Positions 3,647 to 13,911 of a stretch of DNA of 16,572 nucleotides are shown here, piece after piece. The position numbers were made by a program, and so were the translations under genes. Positions within the stretch are counted from its first letter, which is position 1. Each line of letters opens with the position of its first letter. The stretch comes from a virus: IMG/VR virus record IMGVR_UViG_3300013426_000031; one strand, given 5' to 3'. The notes under the pieces were generated by a model that had not been told where the DNA came from, made no database searches, and was given only the letters and a program-made list of their open reading frames with translations.

Positions 3647-4228
3647 CTACTTAACTACAATAGTTCCTTCCGGGCGTTTTTCATATGTAAATTTGCCCGG
3701 CATATAATTCCTAATATCCCAATTAGGATTCTGCATTTCCTCTACAATTTTCTTTGTATTCTCTGCGCTTTCGGCGATTGTTTTCATGCTCTTCTCGCGC
3801 AATAGATTACATTCATTTTCCATAAGCGCGACAAATTCAAGACCTTCTTGATTCTTTCTCATTTCCTTCTGGCGCTTCTCTCTGTCTAAATAAAAGCGCA
3901 TATACTTTCTGTAATCACTATACTTAGCAAATTTAATATAAAAGAATGCGCGCTCCTCAACACCCCAAATAGTTCTATACTTTTCACGTTTTTCTTTTGG
4001 AATTTCATAATAAATTTCTTTAGAACCAATAGACCACTTATCGGGGCAAATACTATAGAATTTAATAAACTGATCATAAGTAAGAATAGTCTTTTTGCGC
4101 TCTTGATGATAAATATTAAATTCATCATTCATATCATTGTATGCTTCTTTATATTTATTATAATTACAAAGGAGAGTAATACCCAAAATAGATAACGCAC
4201 CGGCAATAAGTAAAATAATAAATACCAT
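3647..4228 (-). CDS. Membrane-anchored 193-aa protein: one N-terminal TM helix and a Lys/Glu-rich charged C-terminal domain
   Basis: The ATG at 4228 has GAGGAG upstream. The N-terminus MVFIILLIAGALSILGITLL is hydrophobic. Confidence 0.7.
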   Translation of the reverse strand: MVFIILLIAGALSILGITLLCNYNKYKEAYNDMNDEFNIYHQERKKTILTYDQFIKFYSICPDKWSIGSKEIYYEIPKEKREKYRTIWGVEERAFFYIKFAKYSDYRKYMRFYLDREKRQKEMRKNQEGLEFVALMENECNLLREKSMKTIAESAENTKKIVEEMQNPNWDIRNYMPGKFTYEKRPEGTIVVK

Positions 4229-6092: not shown

Positions 6093-6488
6093 TTACTTAT
6101 AATCAATTGTTTCCATACCTTCATAGAAACTCGGTACAAACCAACTTGTCCAAGGATTCTTTCTAAAATACTGATTCACAATAATCTTTTCATTATAGTC
6201 TCTAATCTGCGTATAAAGCAATTCATTTACATTAACTGCGGAAGTTGTTCCATAAGCATCAATCTGATATTCAATAATTTCTCTTTCGGCTTCAAGAGCA
6301 AGTTTATCACTGGGCGCTTGCACATTAATACATACAATAGAAGCAAGTGCAATAATAAGACAAACAGCAAAAGTAATCGCCAAAAGTTGACAAATAGTTT
6401 CCCATGTGGAGAATACACTAAAAGCATTAGACAAAGCGAGAGTAATAAAAATAATGGTCAATACCAATAAAGCAAAAATAATTAGCAT
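6093..6488 (-). CDS. Small membrane protein, 131 aa, two predicted TM helices
   Basis: The ATG at 6488 has GAGAGG 6 nt upstream. Hydrophobic segments LIIFALLVLTIIFITLAL and LLAITFAVCLIIALASIV. Confidence 0.7.
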   Translation of the reverse strand: MLIIFALLVLTIIFITLALSNAFSVFSTWETICQLLAITFAVCLIIALASIVCINVQAPSDKLALEAEREIIEYQIDAYGTTSAVNVNELLYTQIRDYNEKIIVNQYFRKNPWTSWFVPSFYEGMETIDYK

Positions 6489-6491
6489 AAT

Positions 6492-6722
6492 TTACCTCTC
6501 AATCGTTTCATAACCTTCAACATCTACAGTTGCCATATCGCCGATGTCAAATTCCGCATCTTCGGGGACATTGTAATCGTTTTTTGCTTTCTCAATAAAA
6601 TCTTCAATAGCCCAACCATATGCGGACCAATTGTCAACCCTACCACAATCTAATGCCTGAAGCAATAAACTATCCGCTAATAAATCTGTCAACTCATCTT
6701 TAGGTACAAGACAATAGGTCAT
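6492..6722 (-). CDS. Hypothetical acidic 76-aa protein
   Basis: The ATG at 6722 has AGGAGG 8 nt upstream. Confidence 0.6.
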   Translation of the reverse strand: MTYCLVPKDELTDLLADSLLLQALDCGRVDNWSAYGWAIEDFIEKAKNDYNVPEDAEFDIGDMATVDVEGYETIER

Positions 6723-6850
6723 TCTTCTTCCTCCTTATCCTTCTTCTTATGGAAAGGCCAAATAGGAAGATTAGCATCGGCGCGGTAATTCGCCCACTGA
6801 AGAAAACCGCACAAGCCAATAGCAATTACAAGAATAAAAATAGGGTTCAT
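6719..6850 (-). CDS. 43-aa small membrane protein (MNPIFILVIAIGLCGFLQWANYRADANLPIWPFHKKKDKEEEE)
   Basis: It is not in the ORF track. The ATG at 6850 shares an ATGA overlap with the stop of the MetK-like gene. GGAGAG lies upstream. Its stop TGA shares an ATGA overlap with the next start. Confidence 0.45.
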   Translation of the reverse strand: MNPIFILVIAIGLCGFLQWANYRADANLPIWPFHKKKDKEEEE

Positions 6851-7953
6851 CTTAAACTCTCCTTTATTTCATCTACTTTATCAAGTCGTTCCCAAGGACT
6901 ATTACACTCCGGTCTGCCGAATTGCCCAAAACAAGCATACGGAAGATACTGAGTTTCGCGCAAATCAAGATTATTGATAATAGCTTTACCATTATAATTA
7001 AATGTAATGTCCGCGATTTCTTTAAGTTTTTCTACGGATACTTCTGGATTAATTGGATTAAGATTAATCTCAAAAGGCTTATCCCATTGCGCAGTATAAG
7101 CCAACTGAACAGTCATAGCATCACATGCACCTGCAGCGACAAAATTCTTAGCAATATAGCGTGCCATATAAGTGCCATAGCGCCCACAATAATTAATGCT
7201 CTTACCATAGCCGTTTACGCCCATCGGGCAATAAGAACCATAAGCATTTTCTACCGCCTTGATGCCGGACACACCAAAAGTATCGGGAATATCAGATAGG
7301 GGATTAACATAGAATCGGCAATTCTTATCCACTTCATATCCAAGAGTAGCAATATTGCAAATGTTAGTAATGTCTGGGATAATATCCTGTGGGTCTTTTA
7401 CATCTTTGTATCTAATACTATATACAATACTATCAATACACTTGAATTTACCGTCTTCGTATCGCGCACTTACTTGGCATCTACCGTAAGGTAATGCCCA
7501 ATATAGCTCTTGCTTCTGCATTTTACTAAATGTAATTACTGAAATATTTTGGGCAGTAATTTGCGCAATAGGCATAAAATCAGTAGTCTCATTACAAGCA
7601 TAACCATATGCCGGTCCATATTCCCCACTACCAATATCTTCGACAAACCAATTTACATCGGTTCTAATGTTGTTGATAAATATACAAGTATTACAGTTAA
7701 AACCAGCTACATCATTATTATATCCAATAAAACGTAATGTTTCTTTTGCAATTTCTTCATAAGGAATAGTCCTATTTATCTGTCCCACTACCCCAGATAA
7801 AATAACTGTATTAGAGAAGATACTACAATGAATATTAATTAATGCATCGCAATCAAATTGTAAAATATAATCAGTAATACTTTCTACTATTTGGTCGCAT
7901 ACTTTATTGTATTCTCCAGAGAAACTACTTGAACAAGTATAATAGTTATTCAT
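6847..7953 (-). CDS. Divergent S-adenosylmethionine synthetase (MetK/MAT) homolog, 368 aa, with substituted catalytic motifs (possible pseudoenzyme)
   Basis: I aligned it by eye to E. coli MetK across all three domains:
- TCSSSFSGEYNKVCDQIVESITDYIL against [26 protein letters not shown];
- LRFIGY against VREIGY;
- GSGEYGPAYGYACNETTDFMP against [21 protein letters not shown];
- YEDGKFKCIDSIVYS against YDDGKIVGIDAVVLS;
- YMARYIAKNFVAAG against AARYVAKNIVAAG;
- FGQFGRPE against YGHFGREH. Confidence 0.72.
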   Translation of the reverse strand: MNNYYTCSSSFSGEYNKVCDQIVESITDYILQFDCDALINIHCSIFSNTVILSGVVGQINRTIPYEEIAKETLRFIGYNNDVAGFNCNTCIFINNIRTDVNWFVEDIGSGEYGPAYGYACNETTDFMPIAQITAQNISVITFSKMQKQELYWALPYGRCQVSARYEDGKFKCIDSIVYSIRYKDVKDPQDIIPDITNICNIATLGYEVDKNCRFYVNPLSDIPDTFGVSGIKAVENAYGSYCPMGVNGYGKSINYCGRYGTYMARYIAKNFVAAGACDAMTVQLAYTAQWDKPFEINLNPINPEVSVEKLKEIADITFNYNGKAIINNLDLRETQYLPYACFGQFGRPECNSPWERLDKVDEIKESLR

Positions 7954-7954
7954 T

Positions 7955-8398
7955 TTATTCCTCTCTTTTAACTACTTCATCTAATTCAACTATACAAGCT
8001 TTTGCAAAATATTCCCAATTTGAATAATTTTTATCATTCCAATCATAATATTTTAATGCTGTATGCGCTGAACATCTTTCTTGACTATAAAATGTACTTC
8101 CATCCATTTCAATAGGAAAATAATAATTATCTTTATCTCCATAAGGGGTTCTAATAATTATATGTTTATATAAAGCTTTACCTTCTTTATCACATCTATT
8201 AACTGTATAAGTACAATGATTAATATAATCTTCAACCATTGGATTAGTTAAGTCTTTTTTACCAAAATATTCTTCTGCTATTTCCTTTAAAATAGAACTA
8301 ATTAAAAATTGCTGATTCTCTTTATTTCTTTTATTACTAATGAATTCTTTAATTAATTCATCTTTAGGATTATAAAATTTATATTTTAAATAAGTCAT
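7955..8398 (-). CDS. Hypothetical 147-aa protein; very AT-rich gene
   Basis: The ATG at 8398 is the first gene after the class II promoter. Its stop lies 1 nt before the MetK-like start. Confidence 0.6.
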   Translation of the reverse strand: MTYLKYKFYNPKDELIKEFISNKRNKENQQFLISSILKEIAEEYFGKKDLTNPMVEDYINHCTYTVNRCDKEGKALYKHIIIRTPYGDKDNYYFPIEMDGSTFYSQERCSAHTALKYYDWNDKNYSNWEYFAKACIVELDEVVKREE

Positions 8399-8437: not shown

Positions 8438-8470
8438 TAAATTATAACAAAAATTTTTTCTTTTTTCAAA
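8438..8470 (-). promoter_or_regulatory. Class II sigma70/sigmaA-type promoter: -35 TTGAAA (8469..8464), 17-nt spacer, extended -10 TGTTATAAT (8449..8441)
   Basis: Read on the minus strand: TTGAAAaaagaaaaaatttttgTTATAAT. It matches the consensus and resembles the site at 3611-3645. Confidence 0.6.
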
Positions 8471-8480
8471 TAATTATTGA

Positions 8481-8511
8481 AAGAATAAAACGCAAAGCGT
8501 TTTATTCTTTC
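8481..8511 (-). terminator. Stem-loop terminator, likely bidirectional, ending the unit 10920->8502
   Basis: A perfect 11-bp stem (gaataaaacgc / gcgttttattc) closes a 3-nt loop, with A/T tracts on both sides. Confidence 0.55.
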
Positions 8512-8753
8512 ATGGACACTGCATAGTTGCATCCAGTGCGGAACCAGCAGGCTCGAAGGAACTCTTCGTATGTGGAGTACTCATCTTTATGTTCCGGCCA
8601 CCATTCACGGGCAAGGTCTTTAACAAAACCGCATGCTATCTTACGCAATTGCTCTTGCGAAAAGTTGGCATCGCAACAAACATTATCCTTCTCACCAAAA
8701 GGTGTCCAAGCTTCAATAAACTTTTGAGTTAGAGTAAATTCCGGCGTTTTCAT
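8502..8753 (-). CDS. Hypothetical 83-aa protein; GC-rich relative to its surroundings
   Basis: I prefer the internal ATG at 8753 (MKTPEFTLTQKF), which has AGGAGG upstream, over the listed 102-aa form. The listed N-terminal extension overlaps the upstream gene and has no RBS. Confidence 0.55.
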   Translation of the reverse strand: MKTPEFTLTQKFIEAWTPFGEKDNVCCDANFSQEQLRKIACGFVKDLAREWWPEHKDEYSTYEEFLRACWFRTGCNYAVSMKE

Positions 8754-8758
8754 AAGGT

Positions 8759-8992
8759 TTATCCTCCTTGACCTGATGCAACCGCGACGGGCACACAAGT
8801 AAAATAACATTTATTATAGACTTCCATTACATTCTTATACTCCTGGTTATGTTCTTCAAAGTATTTAAATGCAATATCTAAAAGACTTTCTGGAACAATG
8901 TTATACATTTCTGCTTCTCGCGCTGTTGCTGTTATACTATTGGCTTCTTTGCCATCCGGTGTATAAAAAGTATAATCATAATTTTGCGACAT
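8759..8992 (-). CDS. Hypothetical 77-aa protein
   Basis: The ATG at 8992 has AGGAGG upstream. Confidence 0.6.
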   Translation of the reverse strand: MSQNYDYTFYTPDGKEANSITATAREAEMYNIVPESLLDIAFKYFEEHNQEYKNVMEVYNKCYFTCVPVAVASGQGG

Positions 8993-9054
8993 ATAAATTA
9001 TCCTCCTTTGCCCAAATGCGCTTGCAATTCTTCAAAAATTTTTGTATAATATAA

Positions 9055-9510
9055 TTAAGAAATATGAATACTCATATCATTTAAATAATACCGCTCTTCC
9101 GTATTACCCGCGTAGTAGCAAAGCCACCAAGGCAATGTCCCCACCTTGTATACTCCCCACTTACATTTAATATAACAGGGTTCATCGTTTGTCCTATAAT
9201 AAGTATTATTATCAAGAGTATCATCATTATAATAACCTGTATCGGCAAACCTTACCCACACTGAACCACTATTGGAAAATGTAATATAATTATCGTCCAT
9301 AGGTTCAAGAAAATGCTGTTCAATGCTATACTCACAATTCTCTTCAGTTGGAGTAAATGCTGTACCAAAAATGACACAAAAGAAAGTCGTAGCGATAACC
9401 CCGGTGCATGTGATTGCAATAAAAATCCAAATTCTTCCACCAATAGACGTATATTCCGCGGTTATTGCACAAAGAATAGCAATGATTAATGTGATACAAA
9501 TCCAAACCAT
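9055..9510 (-). CDS. Membrane protein, 151 aa, two TM helices, Tyr/Asp-rich C-terminal domain
   Basis: The ATG at 9510 has AAGGAG upstream. Hydrophobic segments ICITLIIAILCAITA and IWIFIAITCTGVIATTFFCVIFG. Confidence 0.7.
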   Translation of the reverse strand: MVWICITLIIAILCAITAEYTSIGGRIWIFIAITCTGVIATTFFCVIFGTAFTPTEENCEYSIEQHFLEPMDDNYITFSNSGSVWVRFADTGYYNDDTLDNNTYYRTNDEPCYIKCKWGVYKVGTLPWWLCYYAGNTEERYYLNDMSIHIS

Positions 9511-9519
9511 AAGCGCTCC

Positions 9520-9585
9520 TTAATAATTATAACATAAATCAAATAGTGCAACGAGAATAATTAGAATAAAAATAATATATTCCAT
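9520..9585 (-). CDS. Candidate 21-aa hydrophobic micro-ORF (MEYIIFILIILVALFDLCYNY)
   Basis: The ATG at 9585 has GGGAGAA 6 nt upstream. It stops just before the RBS of the downstream membrane protein. This call is speculative. Confidence 0.2.
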   Translation of the reverse strand: MEYIIFILIILVALFDLCYNY

Positions 9586-9586
9586 T

Positions 9587-9925
9587 TTATTCTCCCATTG
9601 TTTGGTCATTTACGAAATCATTTACCGTATTCCAAAAGTCAAAAGAATAAGGCGACAAAAATGCGTGGTCGGGCAAAACAGCAACCTGTGTAATACCAGT
9701 CTTAGTGTCAATCATTTCAAACACTACTGCGCATCTATTGGCGCTTCCATCTTCATAAGTAAAATGCTGGAAAGCTTGCACACGAATCTTAAAACGACCC
9801 TGCCACTTTTCATCTTCTTCAATATTTTTATTCATTGCGCGAACAGTCTTCATAATCTTGCGCTTAAGGTTATTCTTGCTATGTGCGCTACGCGAGGCAC
9901 CCCAAAATGCATAATCTTCTCTCAT
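9587..9925 (-). CDS. Hypothetical 112-aa protein
   Basis: I prefer the ATG at 9925 (MREDYAFWG), with AGGAG 9 nt upstream, to the listed GTG at 9934. It shares an ATGA overlap with the upstream stop. Confidence 0.6.
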   Translation of the reverse strand: MREDYAFWGASRSAHSKNNLKRKIMKTVRAMNKNIEEDEKWQGRFKIRVQAFQHFTYEDGSANRCAVVFEMIDTKTGITQVAVLPDHAFLSPYSFDFWNTVNDFVNDQTMGE

Positions 9926-10203
9926 CTTTTCCACTCCTTAATTTTAAATTGATAAAGTCCTTTGCCATAATCGGTTTCATCTTTTACTACCACAATGATA
10001 TAATCAAAAAATGGCGCATCTTTAATTAATACATAATCAATACTTTCATGATATCCATTATCACCAAGACTTTTGGTAATTTCTTTGGTAAGACCCTCTC
10101 GCGCAATCCATACACTTTGTGTATTTGCTTTAGAGGTTTCCATCATCTGCGCGTTATATTTAGCTTTAAGAAAGCCTAAAACAATTTGATGTGTTGTCTT
10201 CAC
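9922..10203 (-). CDS. Hypothetical 93-aa protein (GTG start)
   Basis: The GTG at 10203 has AGGAG 7 nt upstream. An ATG nearby in another frame is followed immediately by TGA. Start and upstream stop overlap (GTGA). Confidence 0.55.
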   Translation of the reverse strand: MKTTHQIVLGFLKAKYNAQMMETSKANTQSVWIAREGLTKEITKSLGDNGYHESIDYVLIKDAPFFDYIIVVVKDETDYGKGLYQFKIKEWKR

Positions 10204-10577
10204 ATAATCACTCCTTTCGCGCGTAGTCTATCCTCATCTGTCATTTCTTCTGGAATAATTTCAATAATATCTTTAGTACACCACATATCTACTTCACCGG
10301 CGATATAGTCAATAAAAGCATCCCTGCCCATGCCAAGAAGAACTGCGGTTTCATAAAGATACCATTGTTCAGTAGCTTCGGCGCCCGTCTCATAGATTTC
10401 CTCTTGAAGGTATTGAATCATATAATCGGCACATTCGGCACAATAATCATAATATTCTATAAGAGCTACGTTAAAATCTTCTGTTATAATTACTCTGTCT
10501 CCTGGAAGCCAAGAATAATTATTATCCCAATGTAATCTATTATGAAAAATATAACCTGTCATATTATCACCACGCAT
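10200..10577 (-). CDS. Hypothetical acidic 125-aa protein; the alternative start at 10562 would give 120 aa
   Basis: The ATG at 10577 has no RBS and overlaps the upstream gene by 11 nt. The ATG at 10562 (MTGYIFHN) lies 4 nt after the upstream stop, with GGTGA just before it. Confidence 0.5.
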   Translation of the reverse strand: MRGDNMTGYIFHNRLHWDNNYSWLPGDRVIITEDFNVALIEYYDYCAECADYMIQYLQEEIYETGAEATEQWYLYETAVLLGMGRDAFIDYIAGEVDMWCTKDIIEIIPEEMTDEDRLRAKGVIM

Positions 10578-11496: not shown

Positions 11497-11696
11497 TATC
11501 TCATCCTCCGTAGACCCATATGTTGAGCGAATGGCTCGTTTTCTTTATAATTAAATCTTACATCATAAAAATTATCGTGTAGACCAATAGTAGAGAAACT
11601 ATATACTTCCGCGCTAATACGTTCAAATGTAAATGCGGGGACAAGATTTGTATTAATGCTAATCAGGCGACCATCAATAGTAATAATATATTCCAT
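11496..11696 (-). CDS. Hypothetical 66-aa protein
   Basis: The ATG at 11696 has GGAGG 9 nt upstream and shares a TAATG overlap with the upstream stop. Confidence 0.55.
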   Translation of the reverse strand: MEYIITIDGRLISINTNLVPAFTFERISAEVYSFSTIGLHDNFYDVRFNYKENEPFAQHMGLRRMR

Positions 11697-11929
11697 TAAA
11701 TTTTACCTCCACAATTCATACAATAAATTTTATTATCTACAATAAGAACTTGTTCATTGCGCAAAGCAGAACCACATCTTGTGCAATAAGGCGGATTAGA
11801 GCAGAAGAGCTTGCAAGCAGGGTCTTCGGCATTAATAGCTAAGCCACTAAACATAAGGCATTTGCCAATTTCTTTAGATAAATTATTTGGCAATTTGGCG
11901 TACCCGCATCGTCCGCATTTATTTACCAC
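11696..11929 (-). CDS. Small Cys-rich 77-aa protein with four CxxC pairs (predicted zinc ribbon); GTG start
   Basis: CGRCG ... CTRCG ... CMNCG, plus further Cys residues. The GTG at 11929 has AGGAGA 7 nt upstream. Confidence 0.6.
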   Translation of the reverse strand: MVNKCGRCGYAKLPNNLSKEIGKCLMFSGLAINAEDPACKLFCSNPPYCTRCGSALRNEQVLIVDNKIYCMNCGGKI

Positions 11930-12159
11930 ATTACATTCTCCTGCATAGCATTAAGCGCCTCTTCACTTACTTCAAGACATCCATCTGGCGCAAATACATC
12001 AAGAAATACACTTTCAATTTCATCGAATTCCTTAAGAATTTTTCTCATAGCAAGAGCAAACTTTTCATCATCTTTTTCATCGCCATTTACATATACAAGG
12101 CCGGTATCAGTGCGCACCTTACCACTCATATGCCATGCAACTTTATATCTAAGATACAT
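11923..12159 (-). CDS. Hypothetical acidic 78-aa protein
   Basis: The ATG at 12159 has GGAGGA 5 nt upstream. Confidence 0.6.
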   Translation of the reverse strand: MYLRYKVAWHMSGKVRTDTGLVYVNGDEKDDEKFALAMRKILKEFDEIESVFLDVFAPDGCLEVSEEALNAMQENVMW

Positions 12160-12161
12160 AA

Positions 12162-12449
12162 TTAGTCCTCCAAAAAATTATTTTCATAGATTTTACTGAA
12201 TCCAAGAGCGCCTTCATGAAGAGAGTATGCTTCAAGGGACTTATGGCAAAGAAAAGCATATTCTTTCCAATTTTCAATAACATATTTTCCAGTAGGAACG
12301 GGAGCACACATACAAAGAGCGTTGAACGTATGTACCGCATCTTCTTGCGCACATGATAAAATGAATTCTTCAGCATCATTGCGCGTTTTAAAAGAGTACA
12401 TTCCATAAATATCATAAGCATCACTATCAATTACGGTATAAATTTTCAT
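12162..12449 (-). CDS. Paralog family member 6 of 6 (95 aa)
   Basis: MKIYTVIDSDAYDIYGMYSFKTRNDAEEFILSCAQED... shares the N-terminal core with ORFs 12452-13911. GAGGA lies 7 nt upstream. It ends in NFLED, like member 5. Confidence 0.7.
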   Translation of the reverse strand: MKIYTVIDSDAYDIYGMYSFKTRNDAEEFILSCAQEDAVHTFNALCMCAPVPTGKYVIENWKEYAFLCHKSLEAYSLHEGALGFSKIYENNFLED

Positions 12450-12451
12450 AA

Positions 12452-12727
12452 TTAATCCTCTAAATAGTTAATTTCTTTAATATAAAAATTAAATCCGCCC
12501 AAATATAAACAGATACATTCGTTATTAAGGTTTTCTTTATGCCATAAGCCACGAAGTAAATCTATATATTCTTCAAGAGTATCGGCATCTTCAAGTTTAT
12601 TAATGCCATAATTGCAGTCTCCAAAGGCTTCTTCTTCCGCAATAGAAAGAATGAGTTCTTCGGCAGACGCGCGACTATCACAGCAAATCATATCATTATT
12701 AACAGTATTCCAAACAATATATTTCAT
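12452..12727 (-). CDS. Paralog family member 5 of 6 (91 aa)
   Basis: MKYIVWNTVNNDMICCDSRASAEELILSIAEEE... GGAGG lies 9 nt upstream. It ends in NYLED. Confidence 0.7.
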   Translation of the reverse strand: MKYIVWNTVNNDMICCDSRASAEELILSIAEEEAFGDCNYGINKLEDADTLEEYIDLLRGLWHKENLNNECICLYLGGFNFYIKEINYLED

Positions 12728-13008
12728 TAATATACCTCCAGCTCTTCAATAAAATAATGTCCGCCTTTAAGCCAAAGACCAAAGCCATAATTTGTTTGGC
12801 AATTTACTTCTGGATAAAAATTTCTAATTCCATTAATCCACTCATCGTATTCATCATTATTAAAATTCATATAAACAAATGTTTCATAGAGGTCAGCTTG
12901 TGCCAAAGAAAGAATATACTCTTCAGCATTGGCTCTGGTTTCACAAAGACAGATGATTCTTTCGCTTTCTTCGGCATAATCAATTTCAAGAATTACATAT
13001 TTTTTCAT
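12727..13008 (-). CDS. Paralog family member 4 of 6 (93 aa)
   Basis: MKKYVILEIDYAEESERIICLCETRANAEEYILSLAQAD... It shares a TAATG overlap with the upstream gene and ends in ELEVY, like member 1. Confidence 0.7.
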   Translation of the reverse strand: MKKYVILEIDYAEESERIICLCETRANAEEYILSLAQADLYETFVYMNFNNDEYDEWINGIRNFYPEVNCQTNYGFGLWLKGGHYFIEELEVY

Positions 13009-13337
13009 TAAGTATACTCCTTCACACTATGATATCCATACCATTCTCCGTGTTTAATAAGTACATAGCCATAAAGAGAGATAGGTTTGTGAAACTTATT
13101 AAAGTCTTCTACTTCAGGGATAAGGTCTTCGAGATAAGATTTCATAGGGTCAGAACACAAATGGTCAATACCAACAGCGTCATACTGTTCAGGCTCATAG
13201 AGGTAATCATCAAGGAAAAGGTCATAAGCCTCTTCTTCTACACAAGAAAGAATAAGTTCTTGCGCATCGGCTGCTGTTTCACAAAAGGCTTCAATATTTA
13301 CATCATCATCATAGTGAGTATAAACAACATATCTCAT
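13008..13337 (-). CDS. Paralog family member 3 of 6 (109 aa)
   Basis: MRYVVYTHYDDDVNIEAFCETAADAQELILSCVEEE... GGAGA lies 7 nt upstream, and it shares an ATGA overlap with the upstream gene. It ends in EYT. Confidence 0.7.
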   Translation of the reverse strand: MRYVVYTHYDDDVNIEAFCETAADAQELILSCVEEEAYDLFLDDYLYEPEQYDAVGIDHLCSDPMKSYLEDLIPEVEDFNKFHKPISLYGYVLIKHGEWYGYHSVKEYT

Positions 13338-13603
13338 GAATATTCTCCAATCTTACGAATATAATAACAAAGACTTTCTGTGTAATAGTACCAAGCATCA
13401 AGATTTTTAATGCGTTTAGGTCCATATTTTTTTCTAATATGACTATAAATTCTATTAAAATGTTTAATACCATCGGCCATAGCTTTATTATATTCTTTTT
13501 CTTCTACAATGGAAAGAATTAATTCTTGGGCATCTTCTTTGGTGGCGCAAATACCAATTGGTTTATGATTTTCAGCATCGTCATAAATAACAAGATATTT
13601 CAT
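13334..13603 (-). CDS. Paralog family member 2 of 6 (89 aa)
   Basis: MKYLVIYDDAENHKPIGICATKEDAQELILSIVEEKEY... GGAGG lies upstream. It ends in EYS. Confidence 0.7.
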   Translation of the reverse strand: MKYLVIYDDAENHKPIGICATKEDAQELILSIVEEKEYNKAMADGIKHFNRIYSHIRKKYGPKRIKNLDAWYYYTESLCYYIRKIGEYS

Positions 13604-13605
13604 AA

Positions 13606-13911
13606 TTAGTAAACCTCCACCTCAGCAATGTAATACTCTCTACTATCCATAGTAAGGTCATAGCCTTCGAGGGTTTTATAACCTTCGTCATTAAGCATAC
13701 TATTATGATATTCCATAGCACTACGTCGGCATTTTAAATATTCTTCAATAGAAGAATAATCTCTATATTGCACACATCTATAAAGATAATCTTCATATTC
13801 AGTTTCTTCCATGATAGTAAGGATATATTCTTCGGCATCCGCGAGTGTATCACATGTGGTTTTAATTTGCGTGAAATCGTAGTCTTGATAATAAACTACG
13901 TAGCGTTTCAT
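13606..13911 (-). CDS. Paralog family member 1 of 6 (101 aa)
   Basis: MKRYVVYYQDYDFTQIKTTCDTLADAEEYILTIMEETEY... AGGAGG lies 8 nt upstream. It ends in EVEVY. Confidence 0.7.
   Translation of the reverse strand: MKRYVVYYQDYDFTQIKTTCDTLADAEEYILTIMEETEYEDYLYRCVQYRDYSSIEEYLKCRRSAMEYHNSMLNDEGYKTLEGYDLTMDSREYYIAEVEVY

Follow-up and report, generated by a model that had tools for sequence, protein, structure and literature searches.

Phage copies of metK, the gene for S-adenosylmethionine (SAM) synthetase or methionine adenosyltransferase (MAT), appear in the literature searched only as functional SAM synthetases or auxiliary metabolic genes, and no description of a MAT pseudoenzyme was found there. 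In Streptococcus prophages metK adjoins DNA methyltransferases, and it is regarded as a functional SAM synthetase (PMC8223999). In this work we analysed a stretch of viral DNA of 16,572 nucleotides (nt) (IMG/VR virus record IMGVR_UViG_3300013426_000031; the whole stretch is called the window here), which carries a metK homolog encoding a protein of 368 amino acids (aa). Ten of the twelve catalytic residues of MATs are changed in this protein, and it is very probably a dead yet selectively maintained pseudoenzyme. Like the auxiliary metK genes it is phage-encoded, but with its catalytic residues lost it would not supply SAM. The intact phage metKs, those of sister phages, of Streptococcus Javan prophages and of the gut phage IMGVR 517045, keep every catalytic motif and pass the equivalog cutoff of the metK profile; Streptococcus Javan55 and the gut phage were the other phage metKs checked outside the sister phages, and both were intact.

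Phage T3 SAM lyase (gp0.3) binds MetK, inhibits SAM synthesis and defeats both bacteriophage exclusion (BREX) and Type I restriction (10.1101/2023.02.27.530186). The window protein is similar to it only in the proposed outcome, that of an early MetK-binding protein which lowers SAM: the lyase, which shares no homology with it, has a small fold of another kind, cleaves SAM itself and binds the outside of the MetK tetramer, whereas the window protein would replace a subunit. The active sites of MAT itself are assembled across the dimer interface with the R264-E57 salt bridge as the central polar contact, and R264H is a dominant human MAT1A allele (PMC7271947). R264 corresponds to E. coli R244, which is Ile in the window protein, and E57 to E. 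coli E42, which is His (PMC7271947). The human R264H and rat R265H variants thus alter the same arginine, and a defective MAT subunit of this kind can act dominantly; MAT1A R264H, however, is one substitution in an otherwise identical subunit, whereas the identity of the window protein to any cellular MetK is about 30%, and its E42 is changed as well. Finally, the prozyme of trypanosomatid S-adenosylmethionine decarboxylase is a dead paralog in the SAM pathway which is kept by selection and acts by hetero-oligomerisation (PMC6221367). The prozyme activates a partner from the same genome, whereas here the putative partner is a host enzyme and the expected effect would be inhibition.

A MAT homolog without the catalytic residues

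The gene and its parts are as follows.

6847..7953, minus strand: gene of 368 aa for a probable MAT/MetK-fold pseudoenzyme (open reading frame, three Pfam domains, solved MATs in the PDB, TIGR01034, selection)
7663..7944, minus strand: N-terminal MAT domain, aa 4-97 (PF00438, 53.6 bits), with GEYNK at 7903..7917 for GHPDK, plus E42H and E55V
7297..7635, minus strand: central MAT domain, aa 107-219 (PF02772, 56.3 bits), with GSGEYG at 7615..7632 for GAGDQG, plus D163Y and K165R
6886..7275, minus strand: C-terminal MAT domain, aa 227-356 (PF02773, 86.3 bits), with GIK (R244I), K265 kept, K269Y and D271G
7180..7242, minus strand: substituted triphosphate loop YGSYCPMGVNGYGKSINYCGR inside the C-terminal MAT domain (HMMER and MAFFT alignments)

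The open reading frame (ORF) starts with ATG, preceded by the ribosome-binding site GAGAGGA. A preliminary description of this DNA, made from the letters alone, had stated that the protein aligns to SAM synthetase over its N-terminal, central and C-terminal parts and had proposed a profile search with the three Pfam families. This search gave a significant match for each of the three S-AdoMet_synt domains, in the order N-central-C and all above the Pfam gathering score. Solved MATs were matched over the full length, the best being 7r3b (2e-40), and so was E. coli MetK (1e-38, about 29% identity); identity to bacterial MetKs ranged from 28 to 35%. The predicted fold is that of a MAT, and the top structural matches were all MATs. 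No homology to a SAM lyase family was found, the Pfam, PHROG and NCBIfam matches being to MAT domains only.

Three sets of relatives are used below, with proteins given as P numbers and contigs as L numbers. P0001 is 97% identical to the window protein and was found on at least 14 contigs from several samples, of up to 183 kb; P0002 is 83% identical, on contigs of up to 181 kb; and P0003-P0006 are 45-47% identical, with every catalytic motif intact. A fourth relative, P0121, is a second degenerate MAT of 373 aa; it shares 36% identity with the window protein and 47% with the intact P0003. Against the NCBIfam metK equivalog TIGR01034, whose cutoff is 309.4 bits, the window protein scored 201.1 bits, P0002 183.2 and P0121 238.3, all below the cutoff, and two intact syntenic orthologs scored above it (476.5 and 447.3). 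Judging from these profiles, the window protein belongs to the MAT superfamily by descent yet fails the sequence tests for a SAM synthetase. It shares full-length homology and the three-domain architecture with bacterial MetK, and differs from it in the low identity, in the loss of ten catalytic residues and all signature motifs, in two loop deletions, and in a predicted domain geometry which superposes poorly.

The twelve catalytic residues of MATs were taken from PMC7271947 and are, in E. coli numbering, H14, D16, E42, E55, Q98, K165, D238, R244, K245, K265, K269 and D271. At these sites the window protein has, in the same order, E, N, H, V, a deletion, R, T, I, K, K, Y and G, and it therefore keeps only K245 and K265. 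The motif changes listed in the preliminary description, GHPDK to GEYNK (H14E, D16N), GAGDQG to GSGEYG (D118E, Q119Y) and GRK to GIK (R244I), were all recovered in both the HMMER and the MAFFT alignments, which agree on them. Eight positions had also been named there for checking against E. coli MetK; H14, D16, K165, D238, R244 and D271 proved to be changed, and K245 and K265 are intact. Beyond that list we found E42H, E55V, D163Y, K165R, D238T, K269Y, D271G and F230I. The placement of D238T is ambiguous by one residue, and P0002 has Asp at neither position.

One structural claim did not stand. The glycine-rich triphosphate loop had been described as largely deleted, a reading which arose because the wrong 'YG' was paired. 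When correctly aligned, the 25 residues of YGSYCPMGVNGY-GKSINYCGRYGTY pair with the 26-residue reference segment and leave only one gap of one residue, and the loop is substituted instead of deleted; the signature GGGAFSGKD reads GVNGY-GKS. The actual deletions lie elsewhere, with about three residues missing around Q98 (QSP of the gating-loop entry) and five in the GGPMG segment before D238.

The extent of the change becomes clear in a wider comparison. Among 269 homologs drawn from two very large protein libraries, 210 have all of 17 key positions intact, and the window protein is changed at 14 of the 17. Of the 83 positions which are invariant in 11 active MATs, only 36 are kept by every one of the four degenerate proteins, and at 25 every one of them differs. 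From its sequence, the protein is predicted to be unable to make SAM by the MAT mechanism. A normal SAM synthetase is excluded because ten of the twelve catalytic residues are changed and the score of 201 bits is below the cutoff of 309, with orthologs at 447-476. The alternative that the gene product is still an enzyme, either an unusual MAT with another catalytic constellation, as the preliminary description had allowed, or a protein with new chemistry on a related substrate, is in our view very improbable. The fold and some basic residues are kept, and the replacement residues are conserved between the window protein and P0002, as this alternative would have it. However, the losses include both metal-binding aspartates, the catalytic histidine and K269/D271, the score lies below the equivalog cutoff, and there is no alternative polar constellation in common with P0121, with which only six derived residues are shared.

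Selective maintenance

The pseudogene explanation is contradicted by the pattern of substitution. The ratio of nonsynonymous to synonymous divergence (dN/dS, by the method of Nei-Gojobori) of the MAT-like gene is 0.094 against the P0001 gene (synonymous divergence, dS, 0.14) and 0.124 against the P0002 gene (dS 0.75). For neighbouring genes the ratio ranges from 0.07 to 0.72, which places the MAT-like gene among the better-constrained ones, ahead of several neighbours, and its ORF is unbroken in every copy seen. Since dN/dS is 0.09-0.14 and the gene recurs in many independent metagenomes, we consider it maintained and not decaying. Together with the changed catalytic residues and the score below the equivalog cutoff, this bears out the earlier suggestion of a divergent phage-borne MetK that is possibly a pseudoenzyme.

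It must be taken into account that constraint has weakened. The metK of the intact sister clade has a dN/dS of 0.04-0.05 and the dead gene about 0.12, that is, a two- to three-fold relaxation, and the stem branch of the dead clade is accelerated, with 47% identity to the intact sister clade as against 70% inside that clade. Both observations would fit a decaying remnant without function. This explanation is nonetheless hardly credible and already contradicted by the selection data: the low dN/dS holds at dS of up to 0.75, the gene is better conserved than several of its neighbours, and the promoter, the ribosome-binding site and the translational coupling are conserved.

Origin from an active phage metK

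In the clade with intact motifs, P0003-P0005 (L003, L013, L015-L017), GHPDK, GAGDQG, GRK and GGGAFSGKD are all present, and these sister metKs sit on IMG/VR viral contigs of 105-188 kb. Gene order is common to the window and the intact-metK contigs over about 17 kb, with the metK slot in the same promoter-proximal place. The sister copies (P0003-P0005; contigs L015-L019) resemble the window gene in being phage-borne, in occupying this slot and in being followed by a gene for a homolog of the T7 gp5.9 protein, within about 100-130 nt after the intact metK; the motifs ISVIxFS, YLPYACFG and ECNSPWE.LDKV are common to both. In a neighbour-joining tree the dead proteins are nested, on long branches, within the phage metK clade. 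Because gene order is shared with an intact metK in the same slot and the dead proteins nest in the phage metK clade, we conclude that the pseudoenzyme arose in place, out of a metK which the phage already had and which was at first active.

The replacement residues of the window protein and P0002 are largely the same, and those of P0121 differ at most catalytic positions. The derived states common to P0121 and the window clade include A40N, K269Y, D271G and the one-residue loop gap, and the P0121 gene is likewise followed by a gp5.9-like gene. It is likely, on these comparisons, that one early loss of catalysis was followed by divergence of the two lineages, two independent losses being the alternative.

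Other searches added no members of the dead clade. When the whole window was compared by megablast with 50,697 phage records, no match was obtained, and tblastn with the neighbouring protein of 587 aa gave none either. A scan of genome_contigs with the dead-clade alignment gave no new member, only one ordinary MetK with 31% identity, and in metagenome_contigs, where ordinary MetKs swamp the list apart from one sister-clade locus that seems to have the insertion described below for L018, no new member was found either. A metK labelled as from an 'Acinetobacter phage' (H8) was set aside as bacterial chromosome sequence, flanked by tktA and OXA-10. The phage setting of the gene itself is seen in its relatives on viral contigs and in its surroundings, where many small ORFs accompany the gp5.9-like gene and a phage RNA ligase (phrog_968). 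The RNA ligase is nearest to those of large Bacillus siphophages (44% identity), and the region consists of small genes that follow one another on one strand, with 35% GC. The GC content, the gene layout and the RNA ligase suggest that this is an early or host-takeover part of the genome of a large phage which infects a low-GC Gram-positive bacterium.

Gene neighbourhood

The following features surround the MAT-like gene.

8478..8512, minus strand: terminator-like hairpin closing the upstream unit, a 16-pair stem followed by a T-rich tail
8441..8469, minus strand: sigma-70/sigma-A-type promoter-like site TTGAAA-17-(TG)TTATAAT, 11 of 12 consensus matches, extended -10
7955..8398, minus strand: ORF of 147 aa between the promoter and the MAT-like gene, of variable presence, present in L001 and L014 at 82-84% identity
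6719..6850, minus strand: small single-pass membrane peptide of 43 aa, starting MNPIFILVIAIGLCGFLQWANY..., with an ATGA overlap and dN/dS 0.136
6492..6722, minus strand: homolog (76 aa) of the T7 gp5.9 RecBCD inhibitor (PF25708, 28.2 bits, gathering score 24.5; phrog_6234, 6e-6)
6093..6488, minus strand: ORF of 131 aa, the next co-oriented gene, fast-evolving (dN/dS 0.72)

The preliminary description had placed a consensus sigma70/sigmaA promoter at 8438-8470, and the site TTGAAA-17-TGTTATAAT with its TG extension was indeed located at 8469..8441 as the best in the region. It is a consensus match only, from which transcription is predicted, and the number of promoter-like matches across the region is no higher than expected by chance. 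The site and the hairpin are conserved in L007 and L001, with the hairpin loop altered, and the intact metK of L015 is preceded by an equivalent TTGAAA-17-TATAAT and an AAGGAGG site.

The ORF of 147 aa ends 1 nt before the start codon of the MAT-like gene, and in the window the latter does follow it, as had been noted. It is not a fixed partner, however: the gene is missing without trace from the 97%-identical relatives L007-L012, where the promoter directly precedes the MAT-like gene, and in L002, which also encodes P0002, a different gene of 108 aa stands in its place. On sequence comparison it behaves like a swappable cassette. Its dS to L001 is unusually low, at 0.24 as against about 0.75-1.5 for its neighbours, which suggests recent exchange.

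On the downstream side, the coupling to a membrane peptide of 43 aa was borne out, by a 4-nt overlap with the MAT-like stop codon and by a clear hydrophobic segment of 17 residues (Kyte-Doolittle mean 2.36). From tblastn this peptide had seemed specific to the dead clade, an idea that was dropped when a related membrane peptide of 28 aa was seen after the intact metK in L018 (about 10120..10206). The next gene, whose PHROG family is annotated as 'host RecBCD nuclease inhibitor', was seen after the metK slot in all of the relatives examined (L001-L003, L007-L020). This gp5.9-like protein, here in a large phage that is not T7-like, is among the best-conserved small ones, with 67-75% identity across the compared clades and 55% in L013. 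By comparison, the protein of 131 aa is 92% identical to its counterpart in L007 and 34-41% identical to the copies which the other phage clades have at this position. The neighbours of 147, 131, 238, 471 and 587 aa received no function from PHROGs, Pfam or NCBIfam.

Further away, L001 carries a Lar-like restriction-alleviation gene (PF14354) at 19220..19447, outside the window and about 8 kb from the MAT-like gene. It supports the view of a region rich in counter-defence genes. The window also contains, at 11696..13911, about nine tightly packed same-strand ORFs of 77-109 aa without family matches, most of them with overlapping or abutting stop and start codons. As tblastn puts some of them at shifted positions in relatives, they suggest a small paralog family reshuffled between phages.

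Possible binding roles

The distribution of constraint in the dead clade is inverted relative to true MATs. The loops at aa 221-260 have an identity of 0.80 between P0003 and E. coli MetK, being the most conserved block in real MATs, and of 0.65 within the dead clade, where no other block is less conserved. Taken together, the former catalytic loops (aa 98-112 and 220-258) have a nonsynonymous divergence of 0.20, as against 0.075 in the rest of the protein. In addition, 24 positions are invariant in the dead and intact phage proteins and different from bacterial MetKs; they cluster on the helices at 131-143 (Q..ISVI.FS) and 64-75 (P64, L73, F75). In rat MAT, helix alpha2 controls dimer-dimer association (PMC8703375), and P64, L73 and F75 lie on its equivalent. 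The most diverged segment is the central dimer-interface hairpin at aa 41-60, with 11% identity to E. coli MetK and 15% to the intact sister.

AlphaFold models were compared for the window protein (m907bad89d11d) and the intact P0003 (m97af7d4b7ab2), made from the same sequence set, which for the P0003 run was realigned with that protein as query. The former model, and alignments A1 and A4-A6, cover residues 2-368, so that their numbering is one below that of the protein. The window-protein model superposes on solved MATs with a TM-score of only 0.55 and a root-mean-square deviation of about 10 Å, and the P0003 model, with a mean predicted local confidence (pLDDT) of 79, reaches TM-scores of 0.85-0.89. 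Confidence is similar in the two models, and the poor global fit of the dead protein may reflect altered domain packing or merely a weaker model. Low pLDDT at model residues 102-112 and 222-253 was considered as a sign of degeneration and rejected, at least for the catalytic loops, as the intact P0003 is equally low at 229-265. Since the catalytic loops are low in both models, the effect is ascribed to the modelling of interface loops in a monomer.

The former pocket is under less constraint than any other part, and no new polar constellation is common to the two dead lineages; the comparison therefore favours a protein that would work by binding rather than through a new active site. The lineage-specific helix residues (131-143; P64, L73, F75), which persist in active and dead forms, also speak for binding. 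A different use of the pocket was considered, in which it has been remodelled to sequester SAM, a SAM-derived or nucleotide immune signal, or ATP or polyphosphate, without turnover. The pocket retains the basic K17, K245, K265 and R258 (the Arg of VDRS) and has gained tyrosines (P15Y, Q119Y, D163Y, K269Y, S273Y; 27 Tyr in all as against 12 in E. coli MetK), and the replacements are largely common to the window protein and P0002. On the other hand, E55, Q98, D118, F230 and D238, which bind methionine, SAM or adenine, are changed or deleted, P0121 differs at most of these pocket positions, and the pocket loops evolve faster than the rest of the protein. We regard such a ligand trap as improbable.

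A second possibility is a SAM-independent binding or scaffolding role on a phage-specific surface, which would have been inherited from the active ancestor and kept after catalysis became dispensable. As partner one would expect a protein of the phage or of the host, possibly a conserved co-transcribed product. In favour of this role, the 24 phage-invariant positions cluster on two helices, the block of membrane peptide and gp5.9-like gene is kept downstream of metK in both clades, and constraint on the dead protein is lowest in the loops of the former active site; the predicted structure, which deviates from canonical MAT geometry, may also be in line with it. However, the helix residues may belong to the buried core instead of a surface patch, and the proposal leaves the dispensability of catalysis unexplained. 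This is the main rival of the mechanism described next, and we judge it somewhat unlikely.

Proposed mode of action

The mechanism we favour is that the dead MetK co-assembles with the MetK of the host into mixed oligomers. As MAT sites span both subunits, the active sites of such oligomers would be incomplete, or the oligomers would be misregulated; SAM supply would drop, and SAM-dependent defences such as Type I and Type III restriction and BREX would weaken. Dominant-negative binding to host MetK, with a fall in SAM and an effect on restriction or BREX, had already been put forward as a possibility in the preliminary description. The protein would thus act stoichiometrically, by binding, early in infection, as part of a host-takeover or anti-defence gene cluster. 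This mechanism can call on the promoter-proximal position of the gene, the gp5.9-like RecBCD inhibitor close downstream and the Lar-like gene nearby in L001, and on the precedent of T3 SAM lyase, from which it is clear that phages benefit when MetK is blocked. It can also call on the inter-subunit arginine defect of the dominant MAT1A type, which is present here as R244I, with the salt-bridge partner E42 changed to His.

The several parts of this proposal are not equally probable. As a whole, a maintained dead MetK which acts by binding, with co-assembly with host MetK as the favoured form, is the best explanation we have, and it is put forward tentatively, at a little under even confidence. 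For a role in host takeover or counter-defence, taken alone, the case is evenly balanced. That the protein specifically targets host MetK or the SAM supply seems rather unlikely. The most specific version, in which co-assembly with host MetK halts SAM production within minutes and so disarms Type I and Type III restriction and BREX, is quite unlikely.

Several points weigh against co-assembly with the host enzyme. The ancestor at this locus made SAM, so that lowering SAM would be a reversed effect. Pre-formed MetK oligomers are stable, and a lytic cycle may not leave their subunits enough time to mix. The protein shares only 28-35% identity with bacterial MetKs, the interface hairpin at aa 41-60 is the most diverged segment and both residues of the canonical salt bridge between subunits are substituted; a fit with a host MetK subunit is therefore not evident. 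Moreover, the heterodimer of rat R265H and wild-type subunits is inactive in one account (PMC7271947) and has regained activity in another (PMC8703375). Both accounts are secondary and describe the same earlier experiment. The original experiment is reportedly that of Perez Mato et al. 2001.

Other peculiarities of related MATs

Some of the intact sister metKs have features of their own. In L018 (IMG/VR contig 3300045988_166471) and L019 (3300029858_000040), and probably in L023 too, the triphosphate loop holds an in-frame insert of about 316 aa, at 8772..9719 in both of the former. Its boundaries, …YAPHGGG / CVNGDTEFL…RVFITGN, are intein-like, with Cys at position 1, a terminal Asn and Cys at +1. 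A search for the identity of the L018 insert gave no match in Pfam, and its sole sequence match in the PDB, the intein fusion 6rpq, was non-significant (E 0.9).

The intact metK of L015-L019 has an in-frame TAG at codon 21, where the CDQ(I/V) motif has its universally conserved Gln, and a second in-frame TAG lies at 1105..1107 of L003, in an upstream gene. The source gene caller read the metK TAG as Gln (P0003), and L013 (P0005) has a normal Gln codon. These observations suggest TAG-to-Gln recoding or suppression in the sister phages. In the window, TAG serves as stop for one of 36 ORFs (3647..4228).

Degenerate MATs unrelated to the window clade, with 9-12 of the 17 key residues changed, occur in cellular genomes and metagenomes (P0146, P0156, P0177, P0264). 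The neighbours of P0146 (L021, bacterial genome GCA_042576485.1) are YkuD and glycosyltransferase genes, and P0156 has a DUF3293 gene next to it. Degeneration of MATs may be a phenomenon of wider extent that is as yet undescribed.

Implications

Phage metKs are usually classed as auxiliary metabolic genes which boost SAM, and annotation pipelines would label a dead copy in the same way. A phage metK can lose catalysis and yet remain selected, which implies that the MAT scaffold has a second use that is not enzymatic. In sister phages a natural matched pair exists, an intact and a dead ortholog at one genomic position, on which this function is directly testable. If the target is host SAM synthesis, the dead MetK would represent a new route to a known phage strategy, the depletion of SAM against restriction and BREX, and a new class of pseudoenzyme. 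If it does act as a poisonous subunit, it would be the first counter-defence protein known to act as a pseudoenzyme mimic of a core metabolic enzyme, and a natural case of a phage gene that has switched from producing a metabolite to blocking its synthesis.

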